The translations under genes were made by a program, and so were the position numbers. A stretch of DNA of 64,000 nucleotides from sequence record ON286972. The stretch is one strand, 5' to 3'. Position 1 is the first letter of the stretch, and the number at the start of each line of letters is the position of its first letter. The stretch is from Escherichia phage A4. Below, in pieces: positions 11,138-12,265 of this stretch. Below the pieces are notes generated by a model. The model saw nothing but the letters and a program-made list of their open reading frames with translations, did no database searches and was not told where the DNA came from.

Positions 11138-12265
11138 TTAGATGTTGTTTTCAATTGGTTGGATTGGTGCTTGCCATGCTAGAGTACAAATTACTTTCAT
11201 TTGACCATAATTACTGTTATTAACTGATTCATTAAAAACACAAGCAATGATTTCATCTTCTGCTGACGGTTCATGGTTTGTTTCATTAACGATAAAGCGT
11301 AGTGCACGGTTGATATCAAAATAATCAACTGGTGCAATAATAGTACCACCGATATCTTCTTGTGCTTCCCCACCTACACGAATGTGCATTTCAGTTACAG
11401 GGTCAATATAAGCTTGGGTGATATCAACTTCAATATTAGTTACTACATAACCTGCTGGGCATGTACCGATTACCAATACTGCGTTGGTCCATGAATGATC
11501 AATCGTGTTTACAACGATAATTGAATCTTTACCATTCTGACCCGGATCACCTTGCTTACCTTCTGGACCAGGTTCACCATCTTTACCACGGAACTCAATA
11601 CCTTCACTCCATTCTTTTGTTGGAGGGGTGGTTTGATTATTAATATCTACGTAATATAGTTTTCCATCAGTCGTGTTATAGAAGCAATAATCTTCTGGTA
11701 AGTTATCAATACTTGGGAAAGCAGGACCGTCACTGTCAATATGGAAACGACCACGTGGACCTTGTTCACCACGGAAATCAATACCATTACTCCATGAACC
11801 AGCTTTTTGATTATAAAAATACACTTTACCATCGGAAGTATTATAGAAAGTATATTGGTCAAATAGACCAGTGGTTGGGAAAACAGGACCAGAAGAATCA
11901 ATTTTAAATGATTTACCTGGTGCACCAGTATCACCTTTACCAAATTCTACTGTGTTCCAAGTACTTGGTTCTACACCAGCATCATTTGTTTTAAAATATA
12001 GTTTTGCAGTTCCATTTGCTAGACTTAAATAACACCAACCTTCTGGTTTATCAACTGCAAATGTACCGTCTGGTATTTCCATACCAACATCATCAGGATA
12101 GAAATTTTTACCATTAGTACCGTCATGTCCAACGACTAGACCCAAATCTTGTATTGTATTATCAGCGAATGTTACAATCAAATGTCCAGCAGAGTTAATT
12201 ACTAAACTCTTAATACCAGAATTGTTACATGAACCGCCAGACCCATTGTTGAATGAAATTGTCAT
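11138..12265 (-). CDS. tail fibre protein with collagen-like Gly-X-Y repeats
   Basis: 375-aa ORF with GDTGAPGKS, GEQGPRGRF and GKDGEPGPEGKQGDPGQNGKD triplet runs, each followed by an FxIDSxGPxFP...FYNTxDGK unit, repeated three times. Confidence 0.55.
   Translation of the reverse strand: MTISFNNGSGGSCNNSGIKSLVINSAGHLIVTFADNTIQDLGLVVGHDGTNGKNFYPDDVGMEIPDGTFAVDKPEGWCYLSLANGTAKLYFKTNDAGVEPSTWNTVEFGKGDTGAPGKSFKIDSSGPVFPTTGLFDQYTFYNTSDGKVYFYNQKAGSWSNGIDFRGEQGPRGRFHIDSDGPAFPSIDNLPEDYCFYNTTDGKLYYVDINNQTTPPTKEWSEGIEFRGKDGEPGPEGKQGDPGQNGKDSIIVVNTIDHSWTNAVLVIGTCPAGYVVTNIEVDITQAYIDPVTEMHIRVGGEAQEDIGGTIIAPVDYFDINRALRFIVNETNHEPSAEDEIIACVFNESVNNSNYGQMKVICTLAWQAPIQPIENNI

Follow-up and report, generated by a model that had tools for sequence, protein, structure and literature searches.

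Short collagen-like runs alternate with small predicted beta modules in a conserved virion protein of RaK2-like jumbo phages

In the window analyzed here, a stretch of 64,000 nucleotides from Escherichia phage A4 (record ON286972), a minus-strand ORF of 375 aa (positions 11138 to 12265, stop codon included) was found to encode a protein in which four Gly-X-Y runs, all in register and comprising 3, 3, 3, and 7 triplets, are interleaved with predicted beta modules of approximately 50 aa. On balance, the protein is probably a fibre subunit of the virion in RaK2/121Q-like jumbo myophages, most likely homotrimeric, that would form a short and segmented fibre resembling beads on a string.

Results

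The ORF product (40.8 kDa, pI 4.4, 11.4% Gly) matched the phrog_13565 'tail protein' profile from aa 1 to 375 of 375 with an E value of 4.6e-198. In the phage collection searched, the gene was present in 71 records of RaK2-like jumbo phages at 45-75% identity, and its orthologs include RaK2 gp062, 121Q gp574, CBB_228, and phAPEC6 gp253. The gene opens a conserved operon for tail fibres. Next come an optional tailspike gene and then, in this order, genes encoding a protein of ~300 aa, the proximal subunit of the long tail fibre, and a DUF4376 protein. The 723-aa tailspike and the 300-aa protein next door have an N-terminal adaptor in common. Gene order, comprising a gp15-like gene, a NUDIX gene, three small structural genes, and the fibre genes, is kept in RaK2, CBB, 121Q, and phAPEC6.

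The orthologs CBB_228 and phAPEC6 gp253 were detected by mass spectrometry in CBB virions (13 peptides, 44% coverage; PMC5259590) and in phAPEC6 virions (14 peptides, 65.6% coverage; PMC7247149), respectively. Mass spectrometry of RaK2 virions did not detect gp062 (PMC3622015), and this counts against the assignment to a virion fibre. The papers on phiKp24 and on the RaK2 adsorption complex do not mention the protein.

The first-pass annotation had described three tandem units, each made of a Gly-X-Y run followed by a conserved module, at positions 11524 to 11944, which correspond to aa 108-248 of the ORF. Three runs were indeed found in this interval, but it holds only two modules, module 2 (aa 120-165, positions 11771 to 11908) and module 3 (aa 175-226, positions 11588 to 11743). 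The run of the supposed third unit leads instead into the C-terminal beta sandwich, and a degenerate module, module 1 (aa 55-108, positions 11942 to 12103), is located upstream, outside that interval. The assignment to a fibre-type virion protein agreed with the profile match, the operon position, and the presence of orthologs in CBB and phAPEC6 virions, and the collagen-like character given to the runs was upheld by the pattern of conservation described below.

Run 1 (GHDGTNGKN, aa 46-54, positions 12104 to 12130) and run 3 (GEQGPRGRF, aa 166-174, positions 11744 to 11770) contain 3 triplets each, and a conserved Phe, with which module 3 opens, occupies the final Y position of run 3. The run 2 region (GK-GDTGAPGKS, aa 109-119, positions 11909 to 11941) has 3 triplets in register from G111, so that its in-register part is GDTGAPGKS, aa 111-119. 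Run 4 (GKDGEPGPEGKQGDPGQNGKD, aa 227-247, positions 11525 to 11587) contains 7 triplets; no other run has the length to resemble a collagen stalk. When it was compared with Pfam Collagen (PF01391), run 4 scored 16.1 bits (E 0.01, aa 227-246 only), below the gathering threshold of 27.2. Tandem Repeats Finder (TRF) reported a 27-nt period in the DNA coding for run 4 and nothing else, and the feature is not a tandem repeat at the DNA level. Phe directly follows every run, and the position two residues ahead of the first Gly is Phe, Trp, or Tyr in runs 2-4, with Val-Val before run 1; the aromatic residues bordering the runs are conserved.

The repeat architecture was kept in all 31 aligned homologs. 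In runs 1-3, the Gly columns were 100% conserved, and the majority fraction at X and Y positions was 0.40-0.64. The length of these runs differed in 13 homolog rows, always by exactly 3 residues: run 1 had one triplet fewer in five homologs, run 2 lacked one triplet in five, and run 3 had one extra triplet in three, giving a span of 2-4 triplets. The glycines of run 4 were nearly invariant, its length was 5-7 triplets, and in nine homologs it was interrupted by Gly-x4-Gly, which was GESIKG or GDSIKG in eight of the nine. Judged from the alignment, fixed Gly, free X and Y positions, and indels of whole triplets are the signature of triple-helix packing.

Module 2 (FKIDSSGPVFP...YTFYNTSDGKVYFYN...W...DF) and module 3 (HIDSDGPAFP...YCFYNTTDGKLYYVD...W...EFR) shared 46% identity (tblastn E 3e-11) and aligned by hhalign with a probability of 99.5% and an E value of 8e-23. 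The domain E values against the module profile were 2.3e-23, 7.7e-25, and 0.55 for modules 2, 3, and 1, respectively. Repeat alignment therefore gave two clear homologous modules and a degenerate third copy. Module 1 matched modules 2 and 3 colinearly at an hmmsearch E value of ~1e-4 and hhalign E values of 2e-3 to 2e-2, by which sequence weakly supports it as a copy; in the AF2 model it shares the strand order of modules 2 and 3 with a pLDDT of 80-91. Modules 2 and 3 were each predicted with confidence to fold autonomously as a small beta domain (pLDDT 83-91; 87 when module 2 was modeled alone), in the form of a three-stranded meander with extra N- and C-terminal strands compared to a WW domain and no predicted helix. 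There is no Pfam family for the module, and a homologue search with the module alignment returned 115 candidates, none of them significant. The predicted fold of the module appears closest to domains at the N-termini of trimeric tailspikes and receptor-binding proteins of phages.

The N-terminal domain (aa 1-45, positions 12131 to 12265), with short beta strands predicted by AF2 at aa 17-22, 27-32, and 37-42, is the most conserved region, with a mean pairwise identity of 0.68, and we infer that it is the attachment end on the virion. In an in-frame deletion chimera (P0060), a putative 9.9-kb deletion with its breakpoint inside the run 2 region, this domain was kept at 99% identity. The C-terminal head (aa 248-375, positions 11141 to 11524) is predicted to be a jelly-roll beta sandwich whose best structural matches were capsid cement proteins. 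By this likeness of the model, the C-terminus rather than the N-terminus could be the attachment end.

The alternation of runs and modules had been called distinctive, a claim that did not hold up. An exhaustive representative search found the module flanked by Gly-X-Y runs in 77 metagenomic representative proteins or clusters, in which at least 2 Gly-X-Y triplets stood on both sides of 83 of 112 full modules and the runs around the module reached 55 triplets. Some module-bearing proteins had a strong Pfam Collagen match (E 1e-42), or BclA_C or Peptidase_S74 domains. Ten of the distant module-bearing proteins were metagenomic singletons, and the one label among them was 'hypothetical protein'. 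When P0073 was searched against phages by tblastn, 1230 records were obtained, mostly generic collagen-repeat matches, of which those covering the module were kept and re-checked with the module HMM. The module together with Gly-X-Y runs was present in Roseovarius Plymouth podovirus 1 gp32, Erwinia phage Hena1 gp196, which is annotated as a tail fiber protein, and Erwinia phage Pastis gp39. Since the same flanked module occurs in fibre proteins of unrelated phage groups, N4-like podoviruses and Vequintavirinae among them, the alternation is not unique to the 375-aa protein. Literature searches found no experimental characterization of the distant module-bearing proteins.

Discussion

In the arrangement that we favor, an N-terminal beta domain would attach to the particle and be followed by three repeats of a 3-triplet run plus a ~50-aa module, a 7-triplet stalk, and a jelly-roll head. 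The head and the modules would serve as trimerising and registering nodes, and the short Gly-X-Y segments as collagen-type, tightly packed three-chain connectors, which would be possible only by clamping between the nodes. Trimerisation would most likely come from the modules and the head and not from the 3-triplet runs. With 48 Gly-X-Y residues at ~0.29 nm each, three modules, and the head, the fibre is expected to measure ~25-30 nm.

Isolated collagen peptides need roughly 6-10 or more triplets to form a stable triple helix on their own. A self-sufficient length was not found in runs 1-3, with 3 triplets each, or in run 4, with 7 triplets here and 5-7 in homologs. Because runs 1-3 have 3 triplets, contain little proline, and fall below the stable length, a triple helix in them hangs wholly on the presumed clamping. 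The same properties favor an unlikely but serious alternative in which runs 1-3 are flexible glycine-rich hinges with no triple helix, run 4 or none of the runs is collagen-like, and a trimer might still form through the head. The sub-threshold Pfam Collagen score is in keeping with it, as is the pLDDT of <50 for the runs in the monomer AF2 model, a value that says nothing either way about a triple helix. A plain hinge, however, leaves unexplained the complete in-register conservation of Gly beside variable X and Y positions, the indels of exactly 3 residues, and the occurrence of the module inside long bona fide collagen runs of relatives.

Whether the protein belongs to the tail tip is a separate matter. 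It might be a decoration or whisker fibre, for instance a neck whisker of the fibritin type or an appendage of the sheath or capsid, instead of an adhesin of the baseplate or tail tip, possibly anchored by the C-terminal jelly roll with the N-terminus pointing outward. We regard this as improbable to about the same degree as the hinge, for the N-terminus is the end that is most conserved and that was retained in the deletion chimera, and the tail-fibre operon starts with this gene. The 119-nm hairs of CBB (PMC5259590) are approximately fourfold longer than the fibre expected here, and RaK2 and GAP32, which have the ortholog, were not reported as hairy (PMC5259590). On account of this length mismatch and of the ortholog in RaK2 and GAP32, it is unlikely that the protein forms the hairs of CBB and phAPEC6. 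The fibre subunit that we prefer probably serves in accessory adhesion or in the architecture of the fibre complex and not in determining host range, since the C-terminal head is not hypervariable; the conserved head speaks against the fibre as the host-range determinant of these phages.

A third alternative concerns the modules, which might be true WW-domain homologs and serve as peptide-binding docking sites, perhaps for the N-terminal adaptors of neighbouring tailspike and fibre proteins, and not as structural nodes. The module core, LPxxYxFYNTxDGxLYY...W, fits the sequence pattern of the WW domain (PF00397). A profile of 47 modules matched mostly WW domains in the PDB (best matches at E 1.9e-5 to 1e-3, including SMURF2 tandem WW at 1.9e-5, Prp40 at 4e-4, and FBP28 at 8e-4) and multi-WW proteins in a 1.84-billion library (P0068, E 4.8e-13), while column-shuffled module profiles gave no WW matches. 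The N-terminal adaptor that occurs in both the 723-aa tailspike and the 300-aa protein would offer a docking partner. WW membership was nevertheless rejected: the score against PF00397 was 17.8 bits compared to a gathering threshold of 26.9, fold searches with the module did not recover WW domains, and the module profile cross-matched other beta-hairpin repeat families, with B_lectin, BNR, and DUF346 repeats among its matches. WW was matched at E <1 by 6 of the 47 modules, and the first signature Trp of WW is Tyr in ~90% of modules, the second Trp being invariant. The likeness of the module to WW domains is one of sequence, and docking sites of this kind appear very improbable. As for the pattern being a chance or compositional artefact of a protein with so much glycine, the idea carries practically no weight, as at least four runs of at least 3 triplets arose in 5000 shuffles of the protein with P = 0.0002, a 7-triplet run arose in 0 of 5000, the module duplication is highly significant, and all homologs conserve the pattern.

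A broader proposal, which we advance as a doubtful one, is that the ~50-aa module is an undescribed and widespread 'collagen registration node', a small trimeric beta domain for which sequence searches reveal no solved structure, with possible WW ancestry, that permits collagen segments of 2-3 triplets. It would clamp and re-register the three chains in the manner of the multiplexin (collagen XV/XVIII) trimerisation domain, and would allow modular beaded fibres with stalks adjustable in length by single triplets. If the module does trimerise or register 3-triplet segments autonomously, it would be useful to engineers of collagen-mimetic or trimeric scaffolds and to annotators of phage receptor-binding proteins.

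Gly-X-Y segments in phage fibres are already well known; the 375-aa protein is a real and fairly ordinary example, and the finding leaves the picture of phage adsorption unchanged. Its value is descriptive, in that it provides a domain map for a conserved, unannotated virion protein of the RaK2-like jumbo phages and points out a recurrent, unnamed beta module within collagen-like runs of many unrelated phage fibre proteins.

Comparison with known systems

The tailspike and receptor-binding protein anchors that were compared with the module are the 'thigh' of JBD30 gp54 (DUF2793; 8rk3), CBA120 TSP3 (5w6f/6nw9), and Acinetobacter phage tailspikes (6e1r, 8oq1, 6eu4). These anchors occur as a single N-terminal copy around a central helical bundle, whereas the shaft here carries the module in repeated copies, which are helix-free in prediction and bracketed by Gly-X-Y. 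DUF2793 (PF10983) gave no match to the module at E values up to 1, and hhalign of the module profile with JBD30 gp54 gave no sequence link (probability 0.7%). The one match of the full-length profile in the PDB, to the 'Tribody' 8w4f_D (E 0.003), was set aside as a chance mosaic; the aligned part runs from framework 3/4 of a nanobody through a GS linker into the first part of a collagen XVIII domain.

The proteins sharing the module are gp32, Hena1 gp196, Pastis gp39, and the 77 metagenomic proteins, with domain E values down to 2.6e-13. They differ from the 375-aa protein in their longer runs (5-11 and up to 55 triplets) and in their other N- or C-terminal domains (BclA_C, Peptidase_S74, CBM_5_12). 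In gp32 of Roseovarius Plymouth podovirus 1, four modules alternate with runs of 11, 10, 9, and 5 triplets.

Systems with a collagen stalk and a jelly-roll head that may be compared with it are C1q, BclA, ectodysplasin, and the TNF family, together with the NC1 trimerisation domain of collagen XV/XVIII. Among phage proteins, a Gly-X-Y region that joins a particle-binding N-terminal part to a globular domain at the C-terminus is found in the EPcl proteins of E. coli O157 prophages (PMC3368898), and the same layout is present in the lateral fibre gp61 of Stx phage phi24B (bioRxiv 10.64898/2026.04.10.717836) and in FibU of S. aureus 80alpha (PMC7048315). The 375-aa protein differs from these three in that three of its four runs have 3 triplets and alternate with beta modules, and in that no coiled coil is predicted in it (AF2). 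It is likened to them in its expected trimeric state.

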